DNA of 64,000 nucleotides, taken from assembly GCA_041600715.1 (NCBI GenBank), contig JBFIJM010000002.1, positions 5,770 through 69,769 on the forward strand, in the 5' to 3' direction. The notes beneath the pieces are model-generated. The model did no database searches. It was not told the DNA's origin and worked only from the letters and a program-made list of their open reading frames with translations. Every line of letters begins with the position of its first letter. Position 1 is the first letter of the stretch. Below, one piece after another: positions 40,538 to 56,450 of this stretch. The stretch is from Candidatus Saccharimonadales bacterium (lineage in GTDB: Bacteria; Patescibacteriota; Saccharimonadia; Saccharimonadales; 2-12-FULL-41-12). Position numbers and translations under genes: made by a program.

Positions 40538-40555
40538 AATATATAATTTAGGGGG

Positions 40556-40851: not shown

Positions 40852-40853
40852 AT

Positions 40854-41129: not shown

Positions 41130-41138
41130 AATTATATT

Positions 41139-41569: not shown

Positions 41570-41626
41570 ACTTATTATTACTAGGTTGTAGCAAAAATAC
41601 TAAAAAATATTTAAAGTTTTACATTT

Positions 41627-41920
41627 TTAGAAAGAAATATTTCCGGGGAGCTTAATCTCATCCATGTACTGTTGAGGTTTCATGTGCCTTAGCTCATGCT
41701 CAAGACGCAGATTTAAGCATCCTAATTCTGATAGTGAGTCGTTATAGGCTTGAATATCTTTCAGGTCGAAGTTGCTCTGAATCATGAACTCTCTTGCATG
41801 GGCAAGCTTGGTGCTGGTATCTTCTATCTGCTGTCGCAGTAGCTTAATCTTAGATTTTCTACCAAAGTATGCCACTTTAATATGATTTATGAACGACCAC
41901 AACCGCATTGACCTTGACAT
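41627..41920 (-). CDS. hypothetical protein (start uncertain)
   Basis: 97-aa ORF overlapping the upstream gene by 44 nt. An in-frame GTG at 41875, 1 nt after that gene's stop, is an alternative start. Confidence 0.5.
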   Translation of the reverse strand: MSRSMRLWSFINHIKVAYFGRKSKIKLLRQQIEDTSTKLAHAREFMIQSNFDLKDIQAYNDSLSELGCLNLRLEHELRHMKPQQYMDEIKLPGNISF

Positions 41921-42188
41921 TGTAGAAGAATTTGTTTGAGTGGTCAGTGAAATTTTCTCCTAGCCCTATGTCGGACTTGAGCATTTCGTATTGATCTTCT
42001 GGAACATTCTGTATTTCGATTACGAACTTGTCCTGGGGGAAGCGTTCAGAGAAGGATGATAGTTCGGTAGTAATAGCGTAGAAGTCATTATACTTGTTCA
42101 GCTCTTCTCTATACAGTGGCATTATACTTTTTATTACTCCGTTCTCTCGGCTCACAACTCTTTGTCTTTCAAATTGATAGATCAACAT
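41877..42188 (-). CDS. hypothetical protein
   Basis: 103-aa ORF. Confidence 0.55.
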   Translation of the reverse strand: MLIYQFERQRVVSRENGVIKSIMPLYREELNKYNDFYAITTELSSFSERFPQDKFVIEIQNVPEDQYEMLKSDIGLGENFTDHSNKFFYNVKVNAVVVVHKSY

Positions 42189-42192
42189 CTTG

Positions 42193-42405
42193 CTAATATA
42201 AGGAATTAATCAATAGGAGCTGAATAAATTCTTTCAACAACCTTAGCTCGTTATCGTAATCCCCCTGAACAAGACTATCTCCATCAACATCCTTTTGGGT
42301 GATGTAGCCTTCTTCTGGTATAATCTTGTTGTGCTTCCACTTGATAAGATCTGACTCAATCAAGATGAATGTATCGTTCTCTGTTACTGTGATGTTTCTC
42401 TGCAT
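42193..42405 (-). CDS. hypothetical protein
   Basis: 70-aa ORF. Confidence 0.5.
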   Translation of the reverse strand: MQRNITVTENDTFILIESDLIKWKHNKIIPEEGYITQKDVDGDSLVQGDYDNELRLLKEFIQLLLINSLY

Positions 42406-42415
42406 GGCGTTTGGT

Positions 42416-42634
42416 TTAGTGTTTATAATACTTGTTTACAATTCTTTCAGACTCTTCTTGGTGTTTTGAGTAATCGCTAAAAAAGTTATCATTGTAACTC
42501 TCTCCATAAGAAGCGACAAACCCACGAACCAACTCTTTAAAGGTTTTAGCATTTAGCTTTTCACCTCCACGAAATAAGTGCTGCATAACTGCCGCCTGTG
42601 CTGTGTCTTCCGTTATCTTCACTAATAATCTCAT
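42416..42634 (-). CDS. hypothetical protein
   Basis: 72-aa ORF. Confidence 0.5.
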   Translation of the reverse strand: MRLLVKITEDTAQAAVMQHLFRGGEKLNAKTFKELVRGFVASYGESYNDNFFSDYSKHQEESERIVNKYYKH

Positions 42635-42640
42635 AATTTA

Positions 42641-43900
42641 TTATTTTAGGTTTAACTTACTGATTATTGCTGACAGCACCTCTCTCGTAATGCTGTTTCC
42701 GGCCTGTTTGTAGGCCTGGGTGTCGCTGACAGGTATCTTGAACGTGTCAGGGAAGCCTTGTAGTCTGAAGCACTCCCTTGGGGTGAGCCTTCGGATTCTG
42801 CTTTCAGCCCTAATAACAGGCTGTCCACTTCCATCTTCCCTTGCTCTAGCAGGTATGGTGGGGGCTGTACCGTCAGCTATCTTCCTAAATCCCTCTCCAT
42901 CCTTATGTGTTCTCCACGTACCGCTTTCGATAACTCCCTGCTCACATCCAGTATCTAATGTTTGAGCGATACCCTTACCAACCCTTCCTCTACGAGTAGT
43001 TGATGCTAGGACACTGAAGTTAAGGCTGTCTCCTTCCTTCATCTCGTCATACCCCTTAGAGTTGTTGGTTTTAATCTTCACAAGGTCGTCAGCACCACCA
43101 CCACCGAACTTCAAGGCACTCATGTTGTCCTTTTCAGGATCATGAAACTTAGCTCCAAAGCCATTTCCTTTAGCCTTATTTCGCTCATCATACTCAACCA
43201 ACCTATTAACCACCTCCTCTTTTAGGAAGTAATTATCTCCAGGGGAGTCCTCTAAGACATCTTTTAGCTTAGTTGTTAATGGAACCTCTTGAGGCCAAGA
43301 GAAAGTGTTGTCAGCGTCATCTCTGATGCCCACAATGAATACTCTTTCCCTATTTTGGGGAATACCGAAGTTTTTAGTGTTGAGCACCCGATAATAAATA
43401 TGATAGTGTACAGCTTCCTCTATTGGGAAGATGATAGGGTTTCCATTGACTGACTTACCACCAAGGTAGTTGAGCCATGTCTGAAATGTCTTACCCACCT
43501 GGGATGAGTCCTTGCTATCCCTGTCGTGAGACAATAACCCCTTGACATTCTCAAAGATAAAGAAGCGTGGGTTGTTTTCCTTTATGAACTCATATGAGTT
43601 ATAGAACAATATACCCCTACCACTTTCGTCTTCAGTTCCCTTCCTATTCCCTGCCATACTAAACGCTTGGCATGGTGGAGAGGTCATGTAGATGTCTAAT
43701 GGTTCCGATGGGATCTCCCTATCGTATACGTTCTCCGGGTAGTACTTAGGCTCTCCATAGTTGGCTATGTATGTTTGCCTGGCGTACTTATCCATATCAC
43801 AAGAGAACTCTGTCTCATAACCTATGCCTGACAGCATTAATGCTTGGTCAAAGGCTCCAACTCCTGAGAAGTCTGATCCTACTTTGATTTTCTTTTCCAT
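42641..43900 (-). CDS. DNA (cytosine-5)-methyltransferase
   Basis: All core motifs are present: I FSGVGAF, IV SPPCQAFS, VI ENVKGL, VIII QNRERVFIVG, IX RRLTPRECFRLQGFPD and X GNSI. Confidence 0.9.
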   Translation of the reverse strand: MEKKIKVGSDFSGVGAFDQALMLSGIGYETEFSCDMDKYARQTYIANYGEPKYYPENVYDREIPSEPLDIYMTSPPCQAFSMAGNRKGTEDESGRGILFYNSYEFIKENNPRFFIFENVKGLLSHDRDSKDSSQVGKTFQTWLNYLGGKSVNGNPIIFPIEEAVHYHIYYRVLNTKNFGIPQNRERVFIVGIRDDADNTFSWPQEVPLTTKLKDVLEDSPGDNYFLKEEVVNRLVEYDERNKAKGNGFGAKFHDPEKDNMSALKFGGGGADDLVKIKTNNSKGYDEMKEGDSLNFSVLASTTRRGRVGKGIAQTLDTGCEQGVIESGTWRTHKDGEGFRKIADGTAPTIPARAREDGSGQPVIRAESRIRRLTPRECFRLQGFPDTFKIPVSDTQAYKQAGNSITREVLSAIISKLNLK

Positions 43901-43927
43901 AGTTTCGGTATTAAATTTTCAATAAAG

Positions 43928-44044
43928 TTAACTATTACATTTTACTTCTATGAGAAGGACTATGAACGCAATTATCACAGTGATATTAAACACCCTTCTA
44001 AATACAGCCCATAGCCATTCTATCCATCTCTTTAGATCACTCAT
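43928..44044 (-). CDS. 38-aa membrane mini-protein (below cut-off)
   Basis: My translation is MSDLKRWIEWLWAVFRRVFNITVIIAFIVLLIEVKCNS*. Its start overlaps the upstream stop (ATGAGTGA). Confidence 0.3.
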   Translation of the reverse strand: MSDLKRWIEWLWAVFRRVFNITVIIAFIVLLIEVKCNS

Positions 44045-44585
44045 CGTCTAATTTTTTATATGAATCCATTCGTTCAATCTTATCCAGGTACTTGAACAGT
44101 TTGCCCTGCGTCTCTGTGTCTACATCCTCCATGTTCGCTCTAATCCTCTCGAATTGGTTGATGATTAACCAACCTCGCACCTTATCGAGTAGCATTTGCT
44201 CGAACTCATCTCGGTCTAGCCCTAGTGCTTCCTTGTCCTTCCATCGGACTACAATAAAGCCCTTGATGTTCGGTGTTGCACGAAGGCTTACCCTGTATCT
44301 TTCAAACCGATGTAGCCTGGGGTATATCTTCTTAATACCGAAATAGTTCTCAAGTTGTGTGATACTGTCAAAGAACCTTGTGATGTCGTAGCTGTGCGGA
44401 TCAATGATTGCATACCGGTTTCCTATCTTCCTACCAGCATTGCTCTTCACATTACGCATAGCTCTCTTACGTTGCTTTGCACGTTTCTTATTCAGGATTT
44501 TCTGTTCGTTCCTACGCCTGAACTTCTCTAAGCTAGAGAAACCGTAGTCATCCTCATCTAGGAGGGCATCGTGTCGTCTTATCAT
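44037..44585 (-). CDS. hypothetical basic protein (start trimmed)
   Basis: The ORF track gives 44037..44672, but its first 29 codons read through the conserved intergenic element. I prefer the Met at 44585 (MIRRHDALL...). Confidence 0.55.
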   Translation of the reverse strand: MIRRHDALLDEDDYGFSSLEKFRRRNEQKILNKKRAKQRKRAMRNVKSNAGRKIGNRYAIIDPHSYDITRFFDSITQLENYFGIKKIYPRLHRFERYRVSLRATPNIKGFIVVRWKDKEALGLDRDEFEQMLLDKVRGWLIINQFERIRANMEDVDTETQGKLFKYLDKIERMDSYKKLDDE

Positions 44586-44637
44586 TTGTTTAAAATTTAG
44601 GTTAATAATTAATTGATAGTGATTGTTCGGTGTTAAA
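44586..44637 (-). promoter_or_regulatory. conserved leftward intergenic element, copy A
   Basis: Gene-sense sequence is TTAACACCGAACAATCACTATCAATTAATTATTAACCTAAATTTTAAACAA-ATG. Confidence 0.55.
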
Positions 44638-44997
44638 TTAATTTTGTTCTTCCAACCATTTGTAGTGGTCATCTATTATTTTCCTGTCAGGTTTTTTATA
44701 CCAAAATAGAAACTCAATAAGTATTTTACACAACATTTGTTGTCGTGTATGGTAATCAAACCATTGAAATGTAACCCTAAACTTTTGGTATTTATGTTCC
44801 ATTTTCCAGTGATTTCTACCAAGCTCCAAATAGACCCCTGTTTCTTGTTCTATTATTTCAGCTATATTCATTAGCTCTGAGTAAGACTCATGATACTTAA
44901 CGCCATCCCTTTCATCCTCAAGGAACTCCTTTATTACCTGAATCCCCTCAGTTGACGGACTAAAATGATCTTTTTTTGTTGTCTTTAATTTTTTCAT
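44638..44997 (-). CDS. hypothetical protein
   Basis: 119-aa ORF. Confidence 0.6.
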   Translation of the reverse strand: MKKLKTTKKDHFSPSTEGIQVIKEFLEDERDGVKYHESYSELMNIAEIIEQETGVYLELGRNHWKMEHKYQKFRVTFQWFDYHTRQQMLCKILIEFLFWYKKPDRKIIDDHYKWLEEQN

Positions 44998-45002
44998 GTC
45001 TC

Positions 45003-45257
45003 TTATTTTACTTTAATGAATATATCAGTACTTGTTTTATTCCAGTCAACCCTAGCTAGGTTGCCTTTCTGTAGGGCTAAGTACTCTTTAGCCACTACTG
45101 GGTCAATCTTTTCGTTCTTAGCATAACGGACTCCTGTTATCAGCGTAAATGTTTCCACACCATTGGTATCCATAACGGATTTTATTGCCGTTGATCCCAT
45201 TCCGTTTGTTTTGGCGACTGCCATTTCTTGCTCTAATTGTTTTAATGTGTCAATCAT
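45003..45257 (-). CDS. hypothetical protein (start trimmed)
   Basis: The ORF track gives 45003..45314. Its N-terminal 19 codons are read-through of the repeat element, so I prefer the Met at 45257 (MIDTLKQ...). Confidence 0.55.
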   Translation of the reverse strand: MIDTLKQLEQEMAVAKTNGMGSTAIKSVMDTNGVETFTLITGVRYAKNEKIDPVVAKEYLALQKGNLARVDWNKTSTDIFIKVK

Positions 45258-45307
45258 GATTTTAAAATTTAGGTTAATAATTAATTGATAGTGATTGTTC
45301 GGTGTTA
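45258..45307 (-). promoter_or_regulatory. conserved leftward intergenic element, copy B
   Basis: Gene-sense sequence is TTAACACCGAACAATCACTATCAATTAATTATTAACCTAAATTTTAAAATC-ATG, nearly identical to copy A. Confidence 0.55.
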
Positions 45308-45679
45308 ACAACAATTACAGTCATCTATATCTTTTCCATTACGACATAGAGTACCATCTAATAAATCCTCCTTATTTTCGTTATACCACTTAATAAATTC
45401 TACTACTACCCTGTATAGGTCTCCAATATTACTGAATGACCTAATTGGTATCTTGTCATCAAGAATGGAATCATTATCCATCCATCCACCTACCACATCA
45501 ATACATTTGTGATAAACAGGCATTAACCAATCCCAAGAGGTGTCAAATAGTAAATCATCAAATGTATTATCTTTTGTGTAGGATAGCTTTAAATTTCCCT
45601 CATTGTCATACCATCCTATCGGGGTGTTTTGCATCCCCATAAATTCTGCTATTAGCTTATTGTTTTCTGTTGTTTTCAT
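45305..45679 (-). CDS. hypothetical protein (start trimmed)
   Basis: The ORF track gives 45305..45736. The Met at 45679 (MKTTENNKLIAEFMG...) is preceded by AAGGAGGA at 6-nt spacing and avoids a 41-nt overlap. Confidence 0.6.
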   Translation of the reverse strand: MKTTENNKLIAEFMGMQNTPIGWYDNEGNLKLSYTKDNTFDDLLFDTSWDWLMPVYHKCIDVVGGWMDNDSILDDKIPIRSFSNIGDLYRVVVEFIKWYNENKEDLLDGTLCRNGKDIDDCNCC

Positions 45680-45695
45680 AATTAGTCCTCCTTGT

Positions 45696-45932
45696 TTATG
45701 TTGTGTAAATAACTGTATCAATACCTTTCTTCTCATCTACAAAGAAAGCTGCACCCCCATCATTCCCTTCATCATCTTTCTGAAGCACCATAAAACTGCC
45801 GTCATCAAAGATTATTGCCAATGGATTACTGTGCCACCCCATATCTTCCATTTCTTCAGACGTAAGGTATCTTGTCTCCTTAATAGTTTTTCCTACTAAG
45901 AGTTCTGACATTTTCTTATCATGTTTACTCAT
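45696..45932 (-). CDS. hypothetical protein
   Basis: 78-aa ORF. Confidence 0.55.
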   Translation of the reverse strand: MSKHDKKMSELLVGKTIKETRYLTSEEMEDMGWHSNPLAIIFDDGSFMVLQKDDEGNDGGAAFFVDEKKGIDTVIYTT

Positions 45933-45956
45933 ATTCTAATGCCTGTTTCCAGGTCT

Positions 45957-46358
45957 TTAATGGTTATTATTAGTGATAGTGTTTATTCGGTCTATTTGCT
46001 GATCCATTATCATTGATGCCCTTTCCTCTCTTGTTAAGCGTTTAATCTTCCCCTCAAGCTGTTTAATCTTCCTCTTTAGGTTAATAACCGTAATCGACTT
46101 AGGGTCTTCCATATACTTCCGACCATCAGCAGTCACCTTAAACTTAGCCCCCCTACCGTCTTTAAATAGTAGTTCATCTGCCTCCCACCTAGCTATATTG
46201 ATTGAGTAGTAGCCCTGGCGATACACAAAGTCCCTATGGAGATTGCCTTGGGCTACCCATATAAACAACTGCACCTGCTTTCTGGTTGCTCCACCTCTAG
46301 TCTTAGCGATCCTGCGAAAGACATAACGCTGAATATTATTTACTCGTTCCATCATCAT
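45957..46358 (-). CDS. hypothetical protein
   Basis: 133-aa basic ORF. Confidence 0.55.
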   Translation of the reverse strand: MMMERVNNIQRYVFRRIAKTRGGATRKQVQLFIWVAQGNLHRDFVYRQGYYSINIARWEADELLFKDGRGAKFKVTADGRKYMEDPKSITVINLKRKIKQLEGKIKRLTREERASMIMDQQIDRINTITNNNH

Positions 46359-46608
46359 TGGATTTAGTTAAAAACTCCTCAGCTATACTCTGAGATATTT
46401 GGTGGATGTCTAACCCTAAATCGGAACACTCCCTCTTTAATTCATCTCTCTCGGAGCACAACTCCTTGGACACTCTGCCTCCCACATAATCTGAGGTTTC
46501 ATGTACACAGTCCGACAGGAAGTATATTCCGGTTATTTCTATTAGGTTTCGGAAGAACTCTTCTGTTCTTCTCATTGTTTCGACAATTTCTTTCGCTGTT
46601 ATTTTCAT
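46336..46608 (-). CDS. hypothetical protein
   Basis: 90-aa ORF. Confidence 0.55.
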   Translation of the reverse strand: MKITAKEIVETMRRTEEFFRNLIEITGIYFLSDCVHETSDYVGGRVSKELCSERDELKRECSDLGLDIHQISQSIAEEFLTKSNDDGTSK

Positions 46609-46658
46609 GACTTTAAATTTAGTACCGAAAGTTCGGTGTTAATAATAATTGATAGTGA
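46609..46658 (-). promoter_or_regulatory. conserved leftward intergenic element, copy C (shuffled module order)
   Basis: Gene-sense sequence is AATCACTATCAATTATTATTAACACCGAACTTTCGGTACTAAATTTAAAGTC-ATG. It contains an ACCGAA/TTCGGT palindrome. Confidence 0.5.
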
Positions 46659-47225
46659 TTACTTACCTGTCATCTTAAGATACTTAAAGATGTACCCTAA
46701 TGCGAGAGACACTCCTTCCTCAACACTTATGTAGTCATAAGTCCTAAGTGAGGCAGAACTACTTAGCCCGCTATTTCTGTCTGAATTAGTCCACCCCATA
46801 TCTTTTAGGTAGGTTCTCTTAAACCCACCCTCTAACACAAATAGAGACAGAGCCCTTCCTCTGGACTCATACCCAATATTAGACTCTATTAACAAGAAGG
46901 TATGACCTCTAAACACAAAGGTCTTTTCATTGGGAAGTATATCTTTGACTTCCACTACTGGTTCAGCTACTAACTCAAGGAAGTCCTCAACATCAATATC
47001 CTGAAATGATTGTACGGTTTTTTTAGGTTGCTTACCTTTACCTTTAAGGACTGATAGTGAAATACTTTCTCCGTCTATAATTACTGATATTTGTGTTTCG
47101 TCATCCACATCAAAATTGAAGTGTCCAACACCGAACTCTTTAAGTAGTTCGTCATCAATATTCCCATAGGTCTTTTCGGCTAATGTAGCCATTGCTGATA
47201 CTCTTTTTGGCAAACTTGTTCTCAT
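46659..47225 (-). CDS. hypothetical protein
   Basis: 188-aa ORF. Confidence 0.6.
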   Translation of the reverse strand: MRTSLPKRVSAMATLAEKTYGNIDDELLKEFGVGHFNFDVDDETQISVIIDGESISLSVLKGKGKQPKKTVQSFQDIDVEDFLELVAEPVVEVKDILPNEKTFVFRGHTFLLIESNIGYESRGRALSLFVLEGGFKRTYLKDMGWTNSDRNSGLSSSASLRTYDYISVEEGVSLALGYIFKYLKMTGK

Positions 47226-47252
47226 GATAATATATTTTAGGTTAATAATTAA
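47226..47252 (-). promoter_or_regulatory. conserved leftward element, copy D (proximal half only)
   Basis: Gene-sense sequence is AATTAATTATTAACCTAAAATATATTATC-ATG. Confidence 0.45.
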
Positions 47253-48443
47253 TTACGCACTCTTTTGATTTCTTAATCTTTCTAATGACAATTCAACATA
47301 CTCTTCAATAGTCATGTCGAGGTCTTCAGCAGCACTAGACAACCTGTCTAATGACTCCTCTTGTTCGGACTTAGGATCATCATCATCTAAGTCCAACCCC
47401 ATGTCATCATAGAAGTCTACAGCGTCATCTACTGTAGCTGGGCCATAGGAGTCACAATTAAAGCAGTAGTTTTTTTCAGTTAGTTCATCAAGCAGCACCT
47501 CCCTACTACTACAATGCACACAATAATCTAGTGACACCGGAACATCATCCTCTTCAGTTGTTTCGATAGATGATAGTGGTGTTACCCTTCCAGGGTTCCA
47601 ATCCCAATCCCAATAGCTACTATGACCTGTTCTTCCTGAATAACCGCTATAGCCTCCGTATGGTGTTCGTGCAACCTTTCTATCTTCATCAGGCACTAGC
47701 CACATCTGTCCTGCCATAGCCTCAAATATTTCCAAGACAAACTCTAACGTCTCATCCACCTCACTGATTACAATGAACTCATTGTCAGAGTGTGGATCAT
47801 AGTACCCACATGACATATTCGCAACACACACCCCAAGTCCGTTGGTTACTAGCTGACACACATCAGTTAGTCCACCACTTGTTTCAGCCCTACTCCATTT
47901 GTCTAGTATTGCTGAGATGCCATGGCTGAACTCACTTGAGAACAGCTTGGTTCCGTATATCTCATTAACGAAATCCTTGTATCCTTTCCTGTCGCATTGC
48001 AGGGCGAACTCTACATCTTTAAAGAAGGACATATCTGCATCTGCACTACCGACACATCCGACCTCCTCATCTCTAAAGAAAGCTGCTTTACATACATCAA
48101 CCTCCTTGAGTATCTGTAGTGCCACAAACACACCGACCTTATCATCCCCTCCAATTCCAACTCGCTCCATAGTATCCCCATCTATTGAGAATAGTCTATC
48201 GCCAGAGTTGAACAGCAGGAAGTTATTAACAAGGTCGTGAACTGTGTCTGTGTGAGCAACAATACATGGGTAGCTTTCTGCCTCCCCTTTAGTGACGTAG
48301 ATGTTCTGCTTATCATTCACAACAGTTACCCCTTCGATCTGGGATAGCTCATTGAGAATAAAGGCAGTCATCTGCTCAGTTTTATACGATGTCGTTTGTA
48401 TGCACATCGTTTTGCATAGGTCTTTATATCTACTTTTATTCAT
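47253..48443 (-). CDS. M20/M42-type metallopeptidase-like protein with C-terminal zinc ribbon and acidic tail
   Basis: 396 aa. AHTDTV, GGDDKVG and RDEEVGCVGS fit the metal-ligand motifs of peptidase clan MH. Also has CVHC...CFNC near the C-terminus. Confidence 0.55.
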   Translation of the reverse strand: MNKSRYKDLCKTMCIQTTSYKTEQMTAFILNELSQIEGVTVVNDKQNIYVTKGEAESYPCIVAHTDTVHDLVNNFLLFNSGDRLFSIDGDTMERVGIGGDDKVGVFVALQILKEVDVCKAAFFRDEEVGCVGSADADMSFFKDVEFALQCDRKGYKDFVNEIYGTKLFSSEFSHGISAILDKWSRAETSGGLTDVCQLVTNGLGVCVANMSCGYYDPHSDNEFIVISEVDETLEFVLEIFEAMAGQMWLVPDEDRKVARTPYGGYSGYSGRTGHSSYWDWDWNPGRVTPLSSIETTEEDDVPVSLDYCVHCSSREVLLDELTEKNYCFNCDSYGPATVDDAVDFYDDMGLDLDDDDPKSEQEESLDRLSSAAEDLDMTIEEYVELSLERLRNQKSA

Positions 48444-48497
48444 AGTTATTTATTTTATTGATTTATAATTAATTGATAGTGAATGTTCGGTGTTATG
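48444..48497 (-). promoter_or_regulatory. conserved leftward intergenic element, copy E
   Basis: Gene-sense sequence is ATAACACCGAACATTCACTATCAATTAATTATAAATCAATAAAATAAATAACT-ATG. Confidence 0.5.
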
Positions 48498-49776
48498 CGG
48501 CAGCGGCATCATCTTCATCAGAAGGTAGCACCCAATTTCCATCGTCATTCATCTCATACCCTTCAGCTTCATAAGCAGCAGCAACATGGCCTTCGTGAAC
48601 GTCCATGCCTAACTCTTCAAGATAAATTAAATCAACCTCTCCGTTATAGTAGTCTGTTCCGTCATATCCACAGGTAACAATGTCATCACATAGAACATAG
48701 CCTCCGTATGAAGCTACATAGACAACATCATCATTATGAGAACTTGTCCATTGTCCATTAGGCAATTGAACAGCATCTTCACTCAAGATAGACACATCGT
48801 TAACGTCATCATACGTACATTCATCTTGGTGAGCCCAATCATCACGACACTCTAGGTAGTTCATATCGTCAACATGGAATCTATCACCCCTAACACAGCA
48901 CTCACGATAATCTTCACCACCCTGTCTACCTCCTCCTGTTTCGTTACAGACATACTCATGAGATGAATTACAATCGTTGCTCGTAGTTCCTTCTGACATA
49001 TACTTGAAGGTATCCATGTAAGGCCAATGGTCATGCTCTGTGTTTAGTGAGAATGTAAGCCTCTCAGTAAAACGGTCTCCACCAGGATTCACCCAATCAA
49101 CATCGTCATCGTATGATTGTCTATACTTACGGTTAAGACCGTTATCCTTAGCATAGTTTATGAACTTCTCTACAGTTGCGTTTGTCCCGTAGATTCTATC
49201 CATCCACACACCATCCCACAGCAAGGCTCGACCTAATAGTTTTCCTCCCTTGACTAGGATAACCATTTGGACTAGCTGAGGGTTCTTTACGTACACATCG
49301 AAGCACTCAGGGATGTTGTGCCTCATGCAAGAATTTGATAGTGTATCGGTGTTATCAGCGTACCTTGATCCGTTGTACCAGTAGGCGATGTCGTCACCCT
49401 TAACGATACTAAACTCCCCATCGGACACTTCTGCCTTAAGGAAGTTAACTAGGTTTTCGAGGTCTGCATCTATGTACTCAAACCGAGGCACTTGCTCTGT
49501 AAGAACCTTCTTTAAGACCTTTCCATATTTACCTTCTTGCCGGTTTTCCCTGCTCCAAGATTCATTTCCATCGTCGGCCTCGCTCACAATGGTTTGTTTT
49601 TTTGGTGGACAGAATGTCATCACCTTATCCTTTCTGATAGTGATGTTTCTCAAACTGTCCTCATGATACTCGTATTTAGCGAGTCGCGTCAACATCTTAG
49701 CTACTTTATTGTCTGTTTTCGACAATATCTCATAAAAGCTAGTGGACACTAATTTCAATTTAGTTGCTCTCTGCAT
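48493..49776 (-). CDS. hypothetical protein, acidic Asp/Cys/Tyr-rich C-terminal half
   Basis: 427-aa ORF. No family recognised. Confidence 0.65.
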   Translation of the reverse strand: MQRATKLKLVSTSFYEILSKTDNKVAKMLTRLAKYEYHEDSLRNITIRKDKVMTFCPPKKQTIVSEADDGNESWSRENRQEGKYGKVLKKVLTEQVPRFEYIDADLENLVNFLKAEVSDGEFSIVKGDDIAYWYNGSRYADNTDTLSNSCMRHNIPECFDVYVKNPQLVQMVILVKGGKLLGRALLWDGVWMDRIYGTNATVEKFINYAKDNGLNRKYRQSYDDDVDWVNPGGDRFTERLTFSLNTEHDHWPYMDTFKYMSEGTTSNDCNSSHEYVCNETGGGRQGGEDYRECCVRGDRFHVDDMNYLECRDDWAHQDECTYDDVNDVSILSEDAVQLPNGQWTSSHNDDVVYVASYGGYVLCDDIVTCGYDGTDYYNGEVDLIYLEELGMDVHEGHVAAAYEAEGYEMNDDGNWVLPSDEDDAAAA

Positions 49777-49826
49777 TTTAATTGATTTTGGTTAGTAATT
49801 GATTGATAACTGATTTTCGGTGTTAA
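49777..49826 (-). promoter_or_regulatory. conserved leftward intergenic element, copy F
   Basis: Gene-sense sequence is TTAACACCGAAAATCAGTTATCAATCAATTACTAACCAAAATCAATTAAA-ATG. Confidence 0.5.
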
Positions 49827-49987
49827 GACTTCCTGTCTATACCCATTGGTATAAACGATATAAGAACAAACGACACCACACCAAAGAAAAATGCTATAGG
49901 CATTAGTCCCAGGTGTTCTGCTGTTATTGATAGGATTATACTCAGCACTATGCAAACTACACAGACTGTTGTTTCTGATTTTTTCAT
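49823..49987 (-). CDS. 54-aa two-TM membrane protein (below cut-off)
   Basis: My codon-by-codon translation is MKKSETTVCVVCIVLSIILSITAEHLGLMPIAFFFGVVSFVLISFIPMGIDRKS*. Preferred over ORF-track 49755..49955, which reads through the repeat element. Confidence 0.5.
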   Translation of the reverse strand: MKKSETTVCVVCIVLSIILSITAEHLGLMPIAFFFGVVSFVLISFIPMGIDRKS

Positions 49988-50040
49988 TACTTTAGGTTTT
50001 GGTTAATAATTGATTTTCGTGAATAATATGAGCGTGATTA
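49988..50040 (-). promoter_or_regulatory. conserved leftward element, copy G (AATCACGCTCAT variant)
   Basis: Gene-sense sequence is TTAATCACGCTCATATTATTCACGAAAATCAATTATTAACCAAAACCTAAAGTA-ATG. Confidence 0.45.
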
Positions 50041-50595
50041 ACCTTCTAGGTCTTTATTGCTCCTAATGACTTTGTTTCTAATCCTGGTGATGATGTATCC
50101 ATCACTTAAAGAGGTAGACTCTCCATAACTTAGTAATGACATTTTATCTATAACTTCTTCTATCTCCGAAAACATCAGGCCTCCTCCATACCCCTTCATA
50201 TCTGCTATCGTAAAATTAATTGGTGTCATTTCTCCGAACTCATCCAATAAAGTGAACTGCTTGTCTTCCATAGTTTTAATGAAATCCTCCTCCATTTGGA
50301 TGTACATCTTCTTGATTTCGATTGTTTTCTCTAGCACATAGTTGAAGTCGTGCTCTTCAATGTTGTTGTATGAGTGGGCTGTATCAAACCCTAAGACAAT
50401 ATAATCTCCAATATCTTTATTGTAGGTACATTCTTCCCCACATTTGTCCGACATATCTTGGTCGTATTGACTAATTAAGTTAGCAACCCTTGAGTCTTTA
50501 GGTATCATAACATACCCACAACCCCAACCAGTTTTGGCTGTATTTATCCATTCTCTGTCGTACCCAACAAGGTACATTTGAAATTCTTTTTTCAT
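50038..50595 (-). CDS. hypothetical protein
   Basis: 185-aa ORF. Confidence 0.6.
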   Translation of the reverse strand: MKKEFQMYLVGYDREWINTAKTGWGCGYVMIPKDSRVANLISQYDQDMSDKCGEECTYNKDIGDYIVLGFDTAHSYNNIEEHDFNYVLEKTIEIKKMYIQMEEDFIKTMEDKQFTLLDEFGEMTPINFTIADMKGYGGGLMFSEIEEVIDKMSLLSYGESTSLSDGYIITRIRNKVIRSNKDLEG

Positions 50596-50655
50596 GATAT
50601 ATAATTTAGGTTAATACTTTCGGTGTTAAAAGGTGATAGTGATTTTTCGGTGTTA
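50596..50655 (-). promoter_or_regulatory. conserved leftward element, copy H (distal box duplicated)
   Basis: Gene-sense sequence is GTAACACCGAAAAATCACTATCACCTTTTAACACCGAAAGTATTAACCTAAATTATATATC-ATG. Confidence 0.5.
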
Positions 50656-51123
50656 CTTCTTATCGAAGTTCCAAGTGTACCCCATTTGACCAAGGAAGTA
50701 GTATGTCTCTCCGAATAGTTCTTCTGCATGGGCATGGTGGGTAAACAGTTCACCACATGAGTTCTCAATAATAGTGAGCGTACCATCCTTAAAAGTTAGT
50801 GTCTGCCCTTCATCCTCTCCCCAATCATAAGTTAGCTCCTTACAGAGGCTCTCAATGTGCTTCTCGTGGATGTATGGCATAGCCCATCCGTTCCATCTCT
50901 CATTCTTATTGATGACGGCATCGTATTTCTCTCCGTCATCGAAGTATGCTACGCCCTGGACGTATACCTGTGGCACGAAGTCCACCTCGGTTACTGATAC
51001 TGCATCAAACTTCTCTATTGTGAACCCGGTTCCACCTAATAGGTAGCCTCTATCGTTCTTGGTAGCGTATTGTTTGTTACCGTCTTTCCGTAGTACTTCG
51101 TACCATTGTGTTTTGTTGCTCAT
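50653..51123 (-). CDS. hypothetical protein
   Basis: 156-aa ORF. Confidence 0.6.
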   Translation of the reverse strand: MSNKTQWYEVLRKDGNKQYATKNDRGYLLGGTGFTIEKFDAVSVTEVDFVPQVYVQGVAYFDDGEKYDAVINKNERWNGWAMPYIHEKHIESLCKELTYDWGEDEGQTLTFKDGTLTIIENSCGELFTHHAHAEELFGETYYFLGQMGYTWNFDKK

Positions 51124-51286
51124 ATCTATAATTTTTGGGATTAATACTGATTTTCGGTGTTGCCTTACTGTCCTGAAATGAGCGTGATTGCTTGTCGTAT
51201 CTTGCCTTAGCAGTACGATAGAACTCAGCGTAGTATTCCTGGTAGGTCGGCCTGTGATCTATGAATAGGTCTAGTTGTCTACTCAT
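51077..51286 (-). CDS. hypothetical protein (3' end uncertain)
   Basis: 69-aa ORF. Its last ~20 codons read through element copy I and overlap the next gene by 47 nt. Confidence 0.4.
   Translation of the reverse strand: MSRQLDLFIDHRPTYQEYYAEFYRTAKARYDKQSRSFQDSKATPKISINPKNYRYEQQNTMVRSTTERR
51124..51190 (-). promoter_or_regulatory. conserved leftward element, copy I
   Basis: Gene-sense sequence is AATCACGCTCATTTCAGGACAGTAAGGCAACACCGAAAATCAGTATTAATCCCAAAAATTATAGAT-ATG. Confidence 0.45.
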
Positions 51287-51521
51287 GACCTATCTCCCAT
51301 TGGTATATGTCTAGCACATCCTTAGCGGATAGCTTGTCGAACTGCATATCGAATAGCTTCACATACGTTAGCTTATCAATCCTGCTTAGACTTCTAAACC
51401 AATCGTTAGCTACGCATAGCTCTAGGTGTCTATCCATCTCGGCCTTCACCTTGTCTTTGGTCTCTTGAGTGACCATCTCGCCTACCTTGTCAAAGGCCCA
51501 GCCTATTTTTCGTTTGCTCAT
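51279..51521 (-). CDS. hypothetical protein
   Basis: 80-aa ORF. Confidence 0.55.
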   Translation of the reverse strand: MSKRKIGWAFDKVGEMVTQETKDKVKAEMDRHLELCVANDWFRSLSRIDKLTYVKLFDMQFDKLSAKDVLDIYQWEIGHE

Positions 51522-51535
51522 GACATTTCGGTGTT
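51522..51535 (-). promoter_or_regulatory. short form of the leftward element
   Basis: Gene-sense sequence is TTAACACCGAAATGTC-ATG; the TAA is the upstream stop codon. Confidence 0.4.
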
Positions 51536-51773
51536 AATTATTAGTAAAATAGAACTCAGACAGTATGTACCCTACCTCACAAGTCTTAACCTGCTCAGTA
51601 TAGTCTATACCATCCCCATTCCTTTCTATTTCTTGTCTTAGCTTGCCTGTTGAGGCTATAACGTGTAGCTCCCATTCCAACTGATTTAACTTCTCCAGTA
51701 GGTATTGGTATGCTAGTTCAGCTACGAACGCATAAAGCTGCTCAAGGCTGATTGATGCTCTAGGTTCTTTCAT
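51534..51773 (-). CDS. hypothetical protein
   Basis: 79-aa ORF. Confidence 0.55.
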   Translation of the reverse strand: MKEPRASISLEQLYAFVAELAYQYLLEKLNQLEWELHVIASTGKLRQEIERNGDGIDYTEQVKTCEVGYILSEFYFTNN

Positions 51774-51775
51774 AG

Positions 51776-51949
51776 CTATCGGATTACTCTTATTCTTCGT
51801 TTACGAACTAATATCCCATTGATGAACTTCCCAATGATGTCGTACTGTCCTTTGCCATCGTGTTCGGTGTCAATGATTCTGTACTCAGGGATACATTTAA
51901 CTTCATGTTCCTTTTGTGGCGCGTTGCCTCTCTGCTTTGGCTTTTTCAT
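51776..51949 (-). CDS. 57-aa basic protein (below cut-off)
   Basis: My translation is MKKPKQRGNAPQKEHEVKCIPEYRIIDTEHDGKGQYDIIGKFINGILVRKRRIRVIR*. Its stop lies 2 nt before the next ATG. Confidence 0.45.
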   Translation of the reverse strand: MKKPKQRGNAPQKEHEVKCIPEYRIIDTEHDGKGQYDIIGKFINGILVRKRRIRVIR

Positions 51950-52228
51950 TTTTAGATTGCCTGTTTCCAGGGCTTATTGGTTTGCCAGTTGGATGGGTAT
52001 TGCTCCCACTTACGCAGTCGTTCTGCTCCAACCGGTTTAGGTACTCTATTCTATTACCTTTTCATAACTCACCTCCTTTTTTTCCTACGCCCATTATGAG
52101 CGTGATTAACATTCCCTACTACTTGCTACAAGAGCAGGATGAACCGTGACTCACTGCGTTACATACTATGCACACAGGCATTGACACGGCTATTCTAATT
52201 GGTTCCCTCATGATTTCCGGTTTTATGG

Positions 52229-52414
52229 CTACATAGCCGTTAGTATTACTCTTAACTTTAATTCATTTGCGAATCGCTCCGCTGCTACCAGGCAGTACGA
52301 GGCTTTCTCATTGTCCCCTTCAAAGAAAGCGTCTGAAGCCTTCTCATTGAAAAATTGTACTCGTTCTACTAGCTCGTGGAACGATAACTCATTCATGTCT
52401 TCGTATGCTTTCAT
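52229..52414 (-). CDS. hypothetical protein
   Basis: 61-aa acidic helical ORF. Confidence 0.5.
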   Translation of the reverse strand: MKAYEDMNELSFHELVERVQFFNEKASDAFFEGDNEKASYCLVAAERFANELKLRVILTAM

Positions 52415-52440
52415 AACATTTCGGTGTTAATTAATAATTG
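52415..52440 (-). promoter_or_regulatory. short form of the leftward element
   Basis: Gene-sense sequence is CAATTATTAATTAACACCGAAATGTT-ATG. Confidence 0.4.
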
Positions 52441-52493
52441 TCCACTAATAGGGCATTGATCCCTCTGGTTAGTCATTCTAAACTAGTGGATAT

Positions 52494-52531
52494 AAAAAAA
52501 GGCCACAACTATTAAGTCGTGACCTTTTTTC
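52494..52531 (-). terminator. intrinsic terminator after gene 52543..53019 (A-run/T-run on both sides, possibly bidirectional)
   Basis: AGGCCAC (52500-06) pairs with GTGACCT (52519-25) with one mismatch. It is flanked by A7 and T6 runs. Confidence 0.5.
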
Positions 52532-52542
52532 TGATTGTGCTA

Positions 52543-53019
52543 CTACTTACCTAAATCAGCTTTCTTGTCCATCGCCTTTTGTTGTTTCTCAGCTTTGATG
52601 GCTCTCGCAGTGTTCAGGTCGTTCTTTTTCAGGATTTCGTTGCACATCAGTGCCACCTGATGAACGCTAACAAACGGCAAGTCCTTGTACTTGCTTTCGT
52701 CCTTGTGTAGGCACAGACTTTTGAAGCTGATTGCCTCCATTTGTTTCGGTGTTAAGACCTTCTTAGCTTGTGACACGTACCTTTTGAACGCTTGTGATAT
52801 TGTTACCGCGTCTAGGTGTACTAATCTACTTGCCTCTAATAGTCGGTCGTAGCTTCCTGCCTCCGCCTTATTGAAGTTCGCACTCTTCTCTGCTTTTAGC
52901 AAGATAGCCTTGCTTACCTTTGGTATTGCTACCTTTTTTGGCTCAGCCTTAGCCTTAGCCTTTTCTTGTGGTTTGGTAGCCTTGCTACTCTTCGCCACAC
53001 TCTTTCCAATTTTTGTCAT
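52543..53019 (-). CDS. Lys/Ala-rich N-terminus protein, first leftward early gene
   Basis: 158 aa. The N-terminal 45 aa are KAK-rich (histone-like composition). The gene stands alone between the long leader region and a terminator. Confidence 0.6.
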   Translation of the reverse strand: MTKIGKSVAKSSKATKPQEKAKAKAEPKKVAIPKVSKAILLKAEKSANFNKAEAGSYDRLLEASRLVHLDAVTISQAFKRYVSQAKKVLTPKQMEAISFKSLCLHKDESKYKDLPFVSVHQVALMCNEILKKNDLNTARAIKAEKQQKAMDKKADLGK

Positions 53020-54228
53020 TGGTTGCTCGTGCCTATTTCTAGGGCTTTATTGGTTAGCCAAAACCTCGGGGTTCGCTCCCGTCCAGACGGATCTGGGCCA
53101 AGTCTACTTGGAGGTTTCGGTATTAATAACTGATTGAATCTCAGGTTCTCTCATTCACCACAGTTAAGGGCATCACCTTGCATTTATTAGTCGGATGTAT
53201 TTTATTCGTCCGACGGAGGTACTTCTAATTTCCCTCCACACATTCGCATTTATTGTATTACACCCTAGACTCTCTCTAGGTTGCCGAATAGCCTTCGACT
53301 GCTATTCGTTCCCCTGTATCGGGGCGGAAGGCGCATCTTTTTACGCTATCTGATTTATAGTGCAGTTTTCACCGTTCAGAACCTCGTAGGGTATACTAGG
53401 GCATAAACCCACACCTATTAATGACATTTAACACTTTTCAAACGCAACCCCTCAAAGAAGGTAAAACAAAATTCAGTTTTAAGGTATAGAGCGCTTTTCC
53501 GTCGAATTTTTAATGTGGTACGGTTCCCACGGGTTTTTTACGCCTAATCTCGCTATGTCCCCACCTTACTAGTACTGTGCCTTTCAACTCTGTAGTGGCA
53601 TCTGCCTGATGACTCGCATCGTTTACTACTCAAGGCACTATATGTTTGTGCGGTTAATCAATTCGTGATGTGTTGTTGAATTGATAGTTCAAATGTATGA
53701 AAACTTATATGTATTTTCCAAGCACAAAATTTAAATCAGGTGTAAAGAATTGATTATCAGATAATTAAACTTGATATATAGCACTGGATTTAACCATAGA
53801 AAAGTTGTAATTAGGGGTAGAAACTAGGGAAATTCGAGGGGTTTATACACACAAAGCAACCCCATAAAAGGGGATATATAAGACAAGGGGCAAACAACCC
53901 CACCAACGCACACAATAATAGGTAACACATTCATTTACAGCACTTTAGTATAAAAGAATTGTCATATAATTAGAATTATGTTAAATAGAAGGGGCTAAAA
54001 ATATAGCTAATCCAGGTAAAGGATCACACGAGGTAACATAGGCTAACTCGCTGAAAAACAATCCCTTAAAAAATCGGGGGGTGGGGTAAAAAGAACGGAT
54101 TTCGTATCCCGTAGTCGCGCCCCCGGTTGTATAATATTACCCACCCCCCACATCTGCGTGAAAAAAAGGTGGCAAAAAGCTTGTTTTTATGAAAAGTAAA
54201 GTGTTACATTTGTACACTCATCACGACG
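53020..54228. other. 1.2-kb ORF-free, hairpin-rich divergent control region (candidate ncRNA/leader/origin)
   Basis: Apart from the 3' end of ORF 52871..53137(+), which I reject, no ORF-track entry of 60 aa or more lies here on either strand. Visibly richer in G/C runs than the flanks, with multiple stems (see findings). Confidence 0.55.
54205..54212 (+). promoter_or_regulatory. candidate -7 box TACATTTG for rightward early genes
   Basis: Exact TAnnTTTG 17 nt upstream of the ATG at 54229, with a TTG about 24 nt further upstream. Confidence 0.3.
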
Positions 54229-54471
54229 ATGGAGACAAACAATTGTGTTATTATGGGTATAAAAGAGCAAATATTGGATGAAATAGCGTTAAAGAAGCGT
54301 GTTCGGGGGTCCGGTGTTAATTTAAAGGCTATAGCTAAGGATACTGGTTTGAGTTATAACGGGTTGTTGAAGTGGCGTAACGAGCCTGAGAGGAGTATAG
54401 GTGATAAGAGCCTGGATAAGATAGCCAAGGCGTTGGGAAAGCGTATAATATTGATAAATCGGGATATATGA
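54229..54471 (+). CDS. Cro/XRE-type helix-turn-helix regulator
   Basis: 80 aa. LKAIAKDTGLSYNGLLKWRN...LDKIAKALG is a typical XRE HTH pattern. First rightward gene after the control region. Confidence 0.6.
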   Translation: METNNCVIMGIKEQILDEIALKKRVRGSGVNLKAIAKDTGLSYNGLLKWRNEPERSIGDKSLDKIAKALGKRIILINRDI

Positions 54472-54866
54472 GTGATTATGTAAAGGGCCAGGAGGATTTG
54501 ATAAAGCATATCAAGGATGGTATGGTTGACATTGTGAACACTACGACTGGATCAGCGATGTATGAGTCAATAATGGAGTTTTTGATGGCGTTGGAGCCTA
54601 TTGATGATTGGACTTTGTTTAAGACGGGCGAAGGTGAGGATGAGTCTAATCATTTGGAGTTGGATAGGGGTACTTATGAGTACTTGCGAGGGAGAGTTGC
54701 CGAAATAGTGGAGGAGTATGAGGAGGGGGGTATTATGTTGGTTACTGATAATGATCCTGAGAACATGAATATTCATGCCTGGGAATTTGCCTCGAAGAAG
54801 GGGTGGGAGTTCTCACTGATGATTGGAAAAAAGACTAAATGGAAGACATTCACCCCTAAAAACTAA
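54468..54866 (+). CDS. hypothetical acidic protein
   Basis: 132-aa ORF ending in ...FTPKN, encoded by the junction motif. Confidence 0.6.
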   Translation: MSDYVKGQEDLIKHIKDGMVDIVNTTTGSAMYESIMEFLMALEPIDDWTLFKTGEGEDESNHLELDRGTYEYLRGRVAEIVEEYEEGGIMLVTDNDPENMNIHAWEFASKKGWEFSLMIGKKTKWKTFTPKN

Positions 54867-54871
54867 ACAAG

Positions 54872-54979
54872 ATGATTGAAATATTAAGAGGAAGTATTTT
54901 TTTACAGATATTATTATTTGCGGTAATTTGTCCTGCTCTTATGGCTTATTGTGTGTATAAATCAAAACCTAAAAACTAA
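54872..54979 (+). CDS. 35-aa membrane mini-protein (below cut-off)
   Basis: My translation is MIEILRGSIFLQILLFAVICPALMAYCVYKSKPKN*. Bounded by junction motifs. Confidence 0.4.
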   Translation: MIEILRGSIFLQILLFAVICPALMAYCVYKSKPKN

Positions 54980-54983
54980 ACAG

Positions 54984-55094
54984 ATGGAAAATACAATTTT
55001 AATACTGCCGATTTTATGTATTTCTTGGAACGATGTAAACGAAAAAGAATTAACAATAGGATGGCTAACTTTTACTTGTACAATAAAATTTTAA
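54984..55094 (+). CDS. 36-aa mini-protein (below cut-off)
   Basis: My translation is MENTILILPILCISWNDVNEKELTIGWLTFTCTIKF*. Bounded by junction motifs. Confidence 0.35.
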   Translation: MENTILILPILCISWNDVNEKELTIGWLTFTCTIKF

Positions 55095-55112
55095 CCCCTA
55101 AAAACTAAACAG

Positions 55113-55328
55113 ATGGAAGAAACATTAGAGGATTTAAAGAGGGAGTATATGAAAGAAATATATATAGCAAATATTAAAATCCAAGCCCTCACCAAAGAGA
55201 ACGAAGAACTGAGGGAGGCAAGTAAGACGCTTTTAAGTTTATGCGACCTTGAGGACAATAGCGGTAGATTGGTTCATAAGGAGGCAGATAAAGAGATTTT
55301 AAGAAAACTTTTAACCCCTAAAAACTAA
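55113..55328 (+). CDS. KENEEL-motif mini-protein, paralogue 1
   Basis: 71 aa with ALTKENEELR and the C-terminus LLTPKN. Confidence 0.55.
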   Translation: MEETLEDLKREYMKEIYIANIKIQALTKENEELREASKTLLSLCDLEDNSGRLVHKEADKEILRKLLTPKN

Positions 55329-55332
55329 ACAG

Positions 55333-55587: not shown

Positions 55588-55591
55588 ACAG

Positions 55592-55843: not shown

Positions 55844-55853
55844 AAACTAAACA

Positions 55854-56395: not shown

Positions 56396-56450
56396 ATTTG
56401 GAGACTTAGTAATGACTCTCTGCAACTTTGTTCATTATTATTTTAGGTTA

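Follow-up and report, generated by a model that had tools for sequence, protein, structure and literature searches.

What is the function of the repeated sequences that stand in front of the small leftward genes between 44.0 and 53.0 kb of the DNA studied here? This DNA is a 64,000-nucleotide stretch of contig JBFIJM010000002.1 (hereafter the window), and short sequence boxes recur upstream of eleven start codons between its positions 44586 and 52440. An earlier interpretation, made from the letters alone (hereafter the sequence-only reading), described these boxes as one modular element of ~50 nt that is repeated, one copy per gene, before consecutive early genes. The repeats occur far above chance, yet they are not one element. 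They consist of three separable signals, a distal box (Y), a middle box (X) and a proximal box (Z), and only the role of Z is well supported.

The window covers most of a ~70.5-kb phage genome, and exact window proteins are present on an NCBI/Logan record of 70,548 bp. The phage is of the Flavobacteriia type. Its terminase is 27–33% identical to terminases of Flavobacterium 'elemo' and Cellulophaga podophages, and its genes include GroEL, an exonuclease, a helicase, a C5 DNA methyltransferase and an SU10-type capsid gene. Genes run rightward from 1 to 31.5 kb (structure and lysis), leftward from 31.9 to 53.0 kb (genes for replication, small early genes), and from 54.2 kb on they point rightward once more. 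The relatives compared include MW202828 (L011), the distantly related, cultured Cellulophaga phage phi40:1 (L018; Pervagoviridae, a relative of the model phage phi38:1) and the contigs L013 (ERZ3422408), L015 (JGI 3300082555), L019 (TARA) and L020 (SRR14116359). The L020 GroEL is 66% identical to that of the window; no relative above 76% GroEL identity was found, and the phage collection contains no close DNA relative.

Organization of the repeats

All eleven copies are present where the sequence-only reading placed them and read in gene sense, which is the minus strand throughout. Repeat family D1 comprises six copies of 56 nt, and families D5 and D7 correspond to minimal forms. Copy A (44586..44637) has the order Y-X-Z, with Y TAACACCGAA at 44626-44635, X CACTATCA at 44614-44621 and Z TTAACCTAAA at 44596-44605, ahead of an ATG at 44583-44585. 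Copy B (45258..45307) has the same order, with Y at 45298-45307, X at 45286-45293 and Z at 45268-45277, and the TAA of its Y is the stop codon of the upstream gene. The near-identity reported for A and B amounts to 95% over 56 nt, and one frame of both reads TPNNHYQLIINLNFK.

The remaining copies are heterogeneous. The shuffled module order and the palindrome described for copy C (46609..46658) are real: the upstream stop codon is followed by T, X (46650-46657), 8 nt, the doublet TAACACCGAA-CT-TTCGGTACTA (46620-46641), a leader and the ATG. The same layout is found three times in L015, twice with a palindromic doublet. Copy D (47226..47252) is a proximal box alone (TTAACCTAAA at 47236-47245). 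Copy E (48444..48495), before an M42-like peptidase gene, combines Y (48486-48495, TAA being the upstream stop) and X (48474-48481) with an AT-rich leader, and copy F (49777..49825), before a conserved 427-aa gene, combines Y (49816-49825, TAA again the upstream stop) with a degenerate X, CAGTTATCA, and a Z-like box. Copy G (49988..50039) consists of a sister box, AATCACGCTCAT (50028-50039), and a Z-like box. The distal box is doubled in copy H (50596..50655), as had been noticed, giving Y-X-Y-Z with Y at 50646-50655 (TAA as upstream stop), X at 50634-50641, a second Y at 50619-50628 and Z at 50605-50614. Copy I (51124..51189) carries the sister box (51178-51189), the Y variant CAACACCGAA (51153-51162) and a degenerate X.

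The minimal forms before the starts at 51521 and 52414 are distal boxes only. Copy J (51522..51536) reads TAACACCGAAATGTC-ATG, its TAA again serving as the upstream stop codon, and its string ACCGAAATGTCATG recurs in L015. Copy K (52415..52429), TAACACCGAAATGTT-ATG, has no adjacent upstream open reading frame (ORF); a terminator-like hairpin and its T-run (about 52495-52525) are found ~70 nt upstream of it. An additional X box that the sequence-only reading missed, AAACACTATCA (45975..45982, minus strand), occupies the last codons of gene 45957-46358 and is followed by a hairpin leader (45940-45957) and the next ATG.

Two parts of the initial description must be revised. The genes that bear the elements are not consecutive, given that ~9 other genes in 44.0-53.0 kb are interspersed among them and have overlapping starts, a GCCUG-GAAA-CAGGC hairpin leader or a leader like a Shine-Dalgarno (SD) sequence. 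Neither is there a single ~50-nt element with one copy per gene, because the three modules differ in their distributions, and probably in their mechanisms as well.

The proximal box and translation initiation

Z (AACCTAAA) behaves as a positioned leader element. The claim that this box also stands before other starts on both strands is borne out by AACC(N0-3)TAA upstream of 19 starts, and in 13 of these 19 genes a gap of 10-11 nt separates the end of the box from the ATG. Over the whole genome, TTAACCTAAA shows no enrichment (12 copies against 9.2 expected); CCTAAA occurs in 13 of the 81 upstream 30-mers, against 0.9 expected. Over the 81 starts, the adenine fraction is 0.60, 0.69, 0.70 and 0.56 at -13 to -10, 0.57 at -6 and 0.54 at -3, with adenine favored at -4 as well. 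C or T with almost no G occupies -16 to -14, and G accounts for 2-7% at -16 to -12. The leaders are also weakly folded: the minimum free energy is 0 kcal/mol in six of the eleven copies, z-scores are +0.25 to +1.14 for most, and the sole stem among the cassettes is a 5-bp hairpin in copy C (-6 kcal/mol, z -1.4). No Rfam family or stable conserved RNA fold was found in the repeats.

In F. johnsoniae, the initiation signature consists of adenines at -14 to -11, -6 and -3, and bS1 has been proposed as its reader (PMC6847099). Z resembles such an initiation region in its adenines at -13 to -11, its fixed distance to the ATG and its unstructured leader, whereas its consensus AACC-TAAA is longer and sharper than the loose A-tract of the host and its CC at -16/-15 falls outside the described signature (PMC6847099). 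The adenine positions, low structure and lack of SD pairing are those by which a Bacteroidota initiation region is recognized, and the assignment of Z as a host-type translation-initiation leader is well supported.

Z-type leaders occur elsewhere in the window and beyond. Six of them, of the forms (T)TTAACCCCTAAAAACTAAACAG-ATG and TTTAACCCCTAAAAACTAAACAG-ATG, precede small rightward paralogous genes in tandem (54848..55854, plus strand). At least three of these six genes share the internal repeat GCCCTCACCAAAGAGAACGAAGA, and the group looks like a locally amplified paralogue family. A 34-nt match in the Flavobacterium siphophage laban6-1 was considered as an X box and rejected, since it is a gene end plus a Z-type leader; in that unrelated siphophage, the leader belongs to a structural-block gene that comes just after the head-maturation protease.

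Other leader types were also observed. The hairpin leader AAG(A/C)CCTGGAAACAGGCA, with a 5-bp stem and a GAAA tetraloop, occurs on the minus strand at 45940-45957, 51958-51975 and 53030-53047, 7-10 nt before an ATG; one of these copies stands in front of the first leftward gene. At 45680-45693 (minus strand), the SD-like leader AAGGAGGACTAAT(T)-ATG marks the true start of a gene at 45679 rather than 45736. In L015, the SD-like leader precedes six genes (5744, 5887, 7767, 11692, 12020 and 12542), and a seventh copy, GAGGACTAA at 325, has no adjacent ATG. The ribosomes of the hosts' phylum are reported to ignore SD sequences.

The distal box as a genome-wide motif

The distal box was initially taken as an early-gene signal, but it is a genome-wide motif on both strands that is also found inside late structural genes. 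Its general form is T-A-[A/C]-[C/T]-ACCGAA, and in k-mer statistics the most over-represented words of the whole window all belong to it. The exact 9-mer AACACCGAA has 27 copies in the 64 kb against 0.26 expected, and TAACACCGAA with at most one mismatch has 52 against 3.1. The window (1..64000, both strands) contains 37 strict 10-mers (one per ~1.7 kb), namely TAACACCGAA 18 times, TAATACCGAA 10 times and TACTACCGAA nine times, together with 95 ACCGAA cores in all (one per ~0.7 kb), and positions -4 to -1 flanking the core are strongly biased. ACCGAA/TTCGGT accounts for 95 of the 1338 CpGs, against 42 for the next hexamer context, in a genome depleted of CpG (observed/expected 0.52). This depletion is seen although the phage encodes a C5 cytosine methyltransferase (42641-43900).

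Outside the early block, Y occurs about equally on both strands (20 plus and 23 minus in 1-31.5 kb), is mostly intragenic and falls in all three codon phases, and its spacing is near random (coefficient of variation 0.92). Is this abundance a by-product of protein sequence and codon usage? When synonymous codons were shuffled within each gene, so that proteins and codon usage were kept, 1.1 sense and 0.6 antisense strict sites were expected inside genes, and 11 and 13 are observed. The same shuffle of L020 gives 1.55 and 0.21 expected against 10 and 7 observed. The word is therefore maintained at the DNA level, and Y is under selection on both strands. The site TACTACCGAAATC/ACTACCGAAATC provides a further hint, in that it is identical, antisense and at the same place of an orthologous gene in the window (36507-36516), L019 (4545) and L020 (8358), with differing flanking codons; this hints at synonymous-site conservation of intragenic Y.

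In the early block, Y is arranged differently. All 13 strict sites there lie on the minus strand in gene sense, 10 are intergenic and 11 are of the TAAC variant. Their TAA often doubles as the stop codon of the upstream gene, and Y lies 3-50 nt from the ATG at no fixed distance. Two copies of the variant TAATACCGAA lie on the minus strand, one (43904..43913) 3 nt before the ATG of the methyltransferase gene and the other (53116..53125) untranslated, 97 nt upstream of the first leftward gene and without an upstream ORF.

Y also pairs with itself. ACCGAA-NN-TTCGGT doublets, whose arms measure up to 12 bp, are located at 29838, 30714 and 46624 of the window, in degenerate form at 40822, and also in L015, L019 and L020. 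The first (29838..29851, ACCGAA-AG-TTCGGT) lies inside the late-block gene 29798-30211, and the second (30710..30731, TAACACCGAA-CC-TTCGGTAGTGA) lies at the 3' end of gene 30186-30782. The early block of the more distant relative MW202828 (43749-49885) contains 11 copies of a 16-bp palindrome, GTGTCGTTAACGACAC, of the form (TC)GGTGTCGTTAACGACAC(CGA), which stand right after the stop codons of consecutive early genes and mostly before such genes; the arms reach ACACCGA in 2-5 of the 11. At the head of the phi40:1 early block (12170-12235), an X-like AACACTAT is followed by ACCGAA-N10-TTCGGT. A scan of IMG/VR for the palindromic doublet returned only isolated chance-type matches on unrelated contigs.

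The sequence-only reading would have been undermined if the motif were generic in bacterial DNA. It is not generic in the bacterial DNA sampled, with no strict Y in ~30 kb of one marine Bacteroidota chromosome and one in 8 kb of Maribacter, a limited sample given that the host itself is not identified. Among 185,579 bacterial genomes, the 21-mer Y-X unit has seven single matches, below the ~17 estimated by chance, and the Maribacter match reads as coding. A literature search with the 9- and 10-mer sequences returned only primers. The boxes do recur in related phages, where a search had been suggested, and this conservation argues for function.

The middle box at gene boundaries

X (CACTATCA, also written AATCACTATCA) is a boundary signal in gene sense. 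In the window, 1-16 nt separate it from the upstream stop codon and 28-42 nt from the ATG that follows; across phages, these distances are 0-16 and 0-42 nt. ATCACTATCA with at most one mismatch has 20 copies against 6.2 expected. X occurs in gene sense at gene boundaries of the window, L013, L015, L016, L020, L021, L001 and phi40:1, the last of which has 13 copies as TAAAAACACTATCAAAA, and it is essentially absent from the ~30 kb of marine Bacteroidota chromosome. The sister box, of which the three exact copies reported earlier are confirmed (50028-50039, 51178-51189 and 52096-52107), is a variant of X that is placed as TAA-T-CAC straight after the stop codon.

X and Y keep fixed spacings in two geometries, ACCGAA-N4-CACTATCA in the window, L020 and L001 and CACTATCA-N8-TAAY in the window and L015. 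A scan of IMG/VR and JGI metagenomes for the Y-X unit brought back only one unrelated phage type, L001/L035. In MW202828, two palindrome copies are followed by AAAAATCAACACTATC-ATG, which would be a leaderless start if transcripts begin after CACTATC.

Two observations concern non-coding RNA near X. In L013 (2780-2860, 3757-3840 and 6140-6200), X is followed by AAGCTCCGTTCGTCTAGCGGTG, and two copies have TAACACGTT before X and ACGYATAAAATAAC after it; the end of the string resembles the 5' half of a tRNA, and ARAGORN calls no tRNA. A role of X as a tRNA promoter was rejected, as the L013 strings are not tRNAs and a terminator separates X from tRNA-Glu in phi40:1. ARAGORN also predicts a tmRNA-like gene at 18336-18695 of phi40:1 that is absent from the record annotation of that stretch.

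Promoters and candidate trans-acting factors

Which transcription signals does the early block contain? Host-type -7 boxes (TAnnTTTG) start at 12947, 23479, 36791, 38797, 41592, 54205, 57586 and 61725, with a leftward one at 53690. Such boxes precede several phage genes and thus identify the host as a member of Bacteroidota. A scan of the window found no such box from 41.6 to 53.0 kb, an interval that coincides exactly with the element-rich block. The full TTTG-N17-23-TAnnTTTG promoter was found nowhere in the window, and sigma-70-type promoter matches are at or below shuffle level there. The boxes of the repeats themselves resemble neither the TTTG/TAnnTTTG promoter nor an SD site, as the sequence-only reading maintained. 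Between the divergent early blocks lies a gene-free stretch of 1.2 kb (53020-54228) with higher G+C and more hairpins, which carries host-type -7 boxes in both directions (53641 plus, 53690 minus) and the Y site at 53116. It has no Rfam match even at E <= 1, and may function as a control region or an origin or encode a non-coding RNA. The early block is probably entered from a host-type promoter in this 53.0-54.2 kb control region.

The window and L022 together represent essentially the whole phage genome, the remainder outside the window consisting of the portal, the SU10-type capsid and other structural genes. Sequence-based searches of this set against Pfam, PHROG and PDB found no phage RNA polymerase (RNAP), and neither DFDxD nor T7 motifs A/B/C were present. 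No sigma factor was found among the ~45 proteins searched, and the only recognizable transcription factors were one Cro/C1 helix-turn-helix (HTH) protein and one weak winged-helix match. The crAss-like virion RNAP promoters were rejected as a model, because the phage is not crAss-like and the crAss-like paper reports no early motif; likewise, none of the F. psychrophilum alternative-sigma motifs (sigma-54, TAnnTTGY, ECF CGT) resembles X or Y.

Three proteins are candidate regulators. The Cro/C1-type HTH protein (80 aa; 54229..54471, plus strand) is encoded by the first rightward gene, behind a host-type TACATTTG box. The winged-helix-like protein (133 aa; 39805..40206, minus strand) has a weak, below-cutoff match to an AlkZ-related Pfam family; the Y-rich relatives L019 and L020 have kept it, and no counterpart was detected in the 21.6-kb locus that was fetched from the Y-poor L021. 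The first leftward gene (52543..53019, minus strand) encodes a very basic protein of 158 aa with 35 K/R and a KAKAKAEPKK-type N-terminus; it matches no family, and its likeness is to histone-like or H1-like DNA binders. Among the giant virion-block proteins, that encoded at 15763-23454 (2563 aa) has an LPD38 polyvalent-protein domain and that at 7333-12642 has 1769 aa; they otherwise contain no recognizable domain and have no PDB relative.

A proposed three-signal cassette and its alternatives

We tentatively propose, on sequence evidence, that the early-gene cassette joins three parts: Y as an operator- or stoperator-like site, X as a signal for transcription or processing, and Z as a leader for translation. 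The well-supported step is Z, the initiation region for SD-blind Bacteroidota ribosomes, where a leader that is poor in G and free of structure presents adenines at -13 to -11, -6 and -3. Y would be an asymmetric site for a phage-encoded DNA-binding protein, which would bind single half-sites and, we infer, would occupy ACCGAA-NN-TTCGGT doublets as a pair. Where Y stands in gene sense at the boundary beside X, as it does in the early block, it may act as an operator or a stoperator-like roadblock through which the whole block is switched off (or on) together. X would be a lineage-wide gene-boundary signal, most likely an internal transcription signal for the host RNAP with a phage factor, and this is the weakest step of the proposal. 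The fixed Y-X geometry and the lack of host-type promoters in the block favor X as a transcription signal, and its stop-codon anchoring, its free distance to the ATG and the hairpins after it favor an RNA-processing site. Thus, among the roles initially offered, a translation signal fits the proximal box well, an operator array is the best reading of the distal box, with its two-strand occurrence, palindromic doublets and DNA-level selection, and a promoter for a redirected RNAP is possible for the middle box only.

Several findings weigh against this proposal. About half of the strict Y sites fall within late structural genes, in both orientations, an arrangement for which neither an operator nor a stoperator model has any need. 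Across relatives, the elements do not go with particular orthologous genes. No cognate binding protein was found for Y, the HTH proteins of the window and L015 being barely similar, and neither a phage RNAP nor a sigma factor was detected in essentially the whole genome. X is sometimes only 0-4 nt from the ATG in phi40:1 and MW202828, which leaves no room for a -10-type promoter geometry, and some X boxes in L001, L016 and phi40:1 are followed by hairpins, two of them with T-runs.

In a doubtful but still appreciable alternative, the early block is one long transcript from 53.0-54.2 kb and X, together with sense Y, provides sites at which an endoribonuclease or RNA-binding protein of host or phage cuts, marks or represses the message at gene boundaries. 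Such control has precedents, as RNase III cuts T7 early RNA and T4 RegA/RegB repress many early messages. It would account for the sense-only placement of X at boundaries, anchored 0-16 nt after the stop and at any distance (0-42 nt) from the ATG. It would also suit a block without host-type promoters and with a single clear terminator-like hairpin (read by eye), as well as unstructured, G-poor leaders; hairpins after some X boxes could stabilize the new 5' end, and the minimal form ACCGAAATGTCATG abuts the start codon and is kept in L015. However, an RNA signal leaves unexplained why Y is selected on both strands inside genes, the fixed Y-X spacing in two geometries suggests that the boxes act jointly on DNA, no cistron precedes copy K or the 53116 site, and no nuclease or RNA-binding candidate was found.

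It is unlikely that Y is primarily a genome-wide self-tag on double-stranded DNA, read by machinery of the phage or the host that replicates, recombines, protects or packages DNA, with the early-gene use being secondary. The logic would be similar to that of Chi sites or DNA uptake sequences, of which Y would be a viral counterpart. This explanation draws on the density of Y, which extends to either strand, to every codon phase and to the interior of conserved genes, on its near-random spacing and inverted pairs, on the recurrence of the pattern in L020, on ACCGAA being the commonest CpG context of a CpG-depleted genome and on the retention of TACTACCGAAATC at the same place in three phages. 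Against it, Y has no strand polarity outside the early block, it is not enriched in the small Bacteroidota samples (the host not being identified), and no phage precedent was found. Moreover, the early-block sites are strikingly ordered, all in sense, at boundaries and of the TAAC variant, which points to gene control.

Could the repeats instead be mobile regulatory cassettes, whose homology allows recombination to shuffle small ORFan genes while regulation rides along? We consider this quite unlikely. Seven of the eleven genes preceded by an element lack a homologue in all fetched relatives, orthologous junctions may have or lack the element from one phage to the next, the genes behind the nearly identical copies A and B are unrelated, and an identical 21-nt Y-X unit is present in the otherwise unrelated phage L001/L035. 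The T4-type PeSLs, with which such cassettes would be compared, are strong sigma-70-like promoters combined with terminator stem-loops (PMC2839356). The present cassettes are likewise small repeats between small, poorly conserved early genes in a plastic region and are plausible shuffling substrates (PMC2839356), but they have no host-type, sigma-A-type promoter and, except in copy C, no stem-loop. Nor does recombination explain how cores of 8-10 nt are kept across phages of 30-60% protein identity.

Finally, it is highly improbable that Y-X is one ~22-nt single-subunit-type promoter for a phage-encoded or virion-delivered RNAP with a start just after CACTATC: although the contiguous TAA(Y)ACCGAA-N4-CACTATC(A) has the size of a T7-type promoter and shares TAATAC...TCACTAT with it, the ATG never overlaps X and may directly follow CACTATC (as in ACACTATC-ATG of MW202828), and the 2563-aa virion-block protein has no assigned function, the searches of the window and L022 (Pfam, PHROG, PDB and catalytic motifs) yielded no RNAP, the module order is shuffled in copy C and L015, and Y occurs on both strands inside genes.

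Relation to known phage repeats

How does the favored arrangement of operator-like site, boundary signal and translation leader compare with known systems? P1 has dispersed asymmetric sites for its C1 repressor, and phiC31 of Streptomyces has conserved inverted repeats beside repeated early promoters. The likeness is that one regulator has many genome-wide sites, some paired as imperfect palindromes, and that repeated phage-specific signals precede early genes; the difference is that those sites lie near promoters and not in structural genes, in unrelated hosts and sequences, and that both phages are temperate.

The operators and stoperators of Cluster A mycobacteriophages (L5 gp71 type) are short asymmetric sites, present in dozens of copies in promoter regions and short intergenic gaps and oriented with transcription, and one phage protein binds them to block both initiation and elongation (PMC9283540). 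Y resembles them in having more than 20 copies of a short asymmetric site and, in the early block, in its uniform gene sense (13/13) and largely intergenic placement (10/13). Unlike stoperators, which are 13-mers, Y is a 10-mer that forms palindromic doublets and occurs in late genes in both orientations (11 sense, 13 antisense). There is also no evidence of lysogeny, and an L5-like repressor did not turn up, no dedicated search for one having been made. Y fits the stoperator pattern inside the early block only.

The SAS repeats of Cluster K phages are 13 bp long; many non-structural genes have one 3-7 bp ahead of the start codon, in a single orientation and sometimes over the upstream stop codon (PMC3203893). 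Half of the copies have an adjacent inverted repeat (ESAS), the repeats precede unrelated genes across subclusters, they are absent from the host, and their function is unknown (PMC3203893). The present cassette differs in that SAS has an SD core at the position of a ribosome-binding site, whereas Z is fixed at 10-11 nt without an SD core; X (0-42 nt) and Y (3-50 nt) are at no fixed distance from the ATG, and there is no sequence similarity. The transcriptome paper on phi38:1 makes no mention of promoters or motifs. The cassette thus appears akin to known phage repeats at early-gene boundaries, and the boxes themselves appear undescribed. What is unusual is the genome-wide, intragenic, two-strand selection on Y.

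Implications

The expression signals of Bacteroidota phages are almost uncharted, and standard promoter and ribosome-binding-site finders fail on these phages because their hosts ignore SD sequences and use an unusual sigma factor. With the AACC-TAAA box at -18 to -11, start codons could be called and expression designed more reliably in Flavobacteriia and their phages. As X is common to the cultured phage phi40:1, its function is directly testable. If the self-tag reading of Y is true, Y tells phage from host DNA, for example in nuclease sparing, in the loading of recombination or replication machinery or in packaging preference. Selection of Y inside genes and on both strands in at least two related phages is unusual for a regulator site, and it could reveal a new form of genome-wide DNA recognition.

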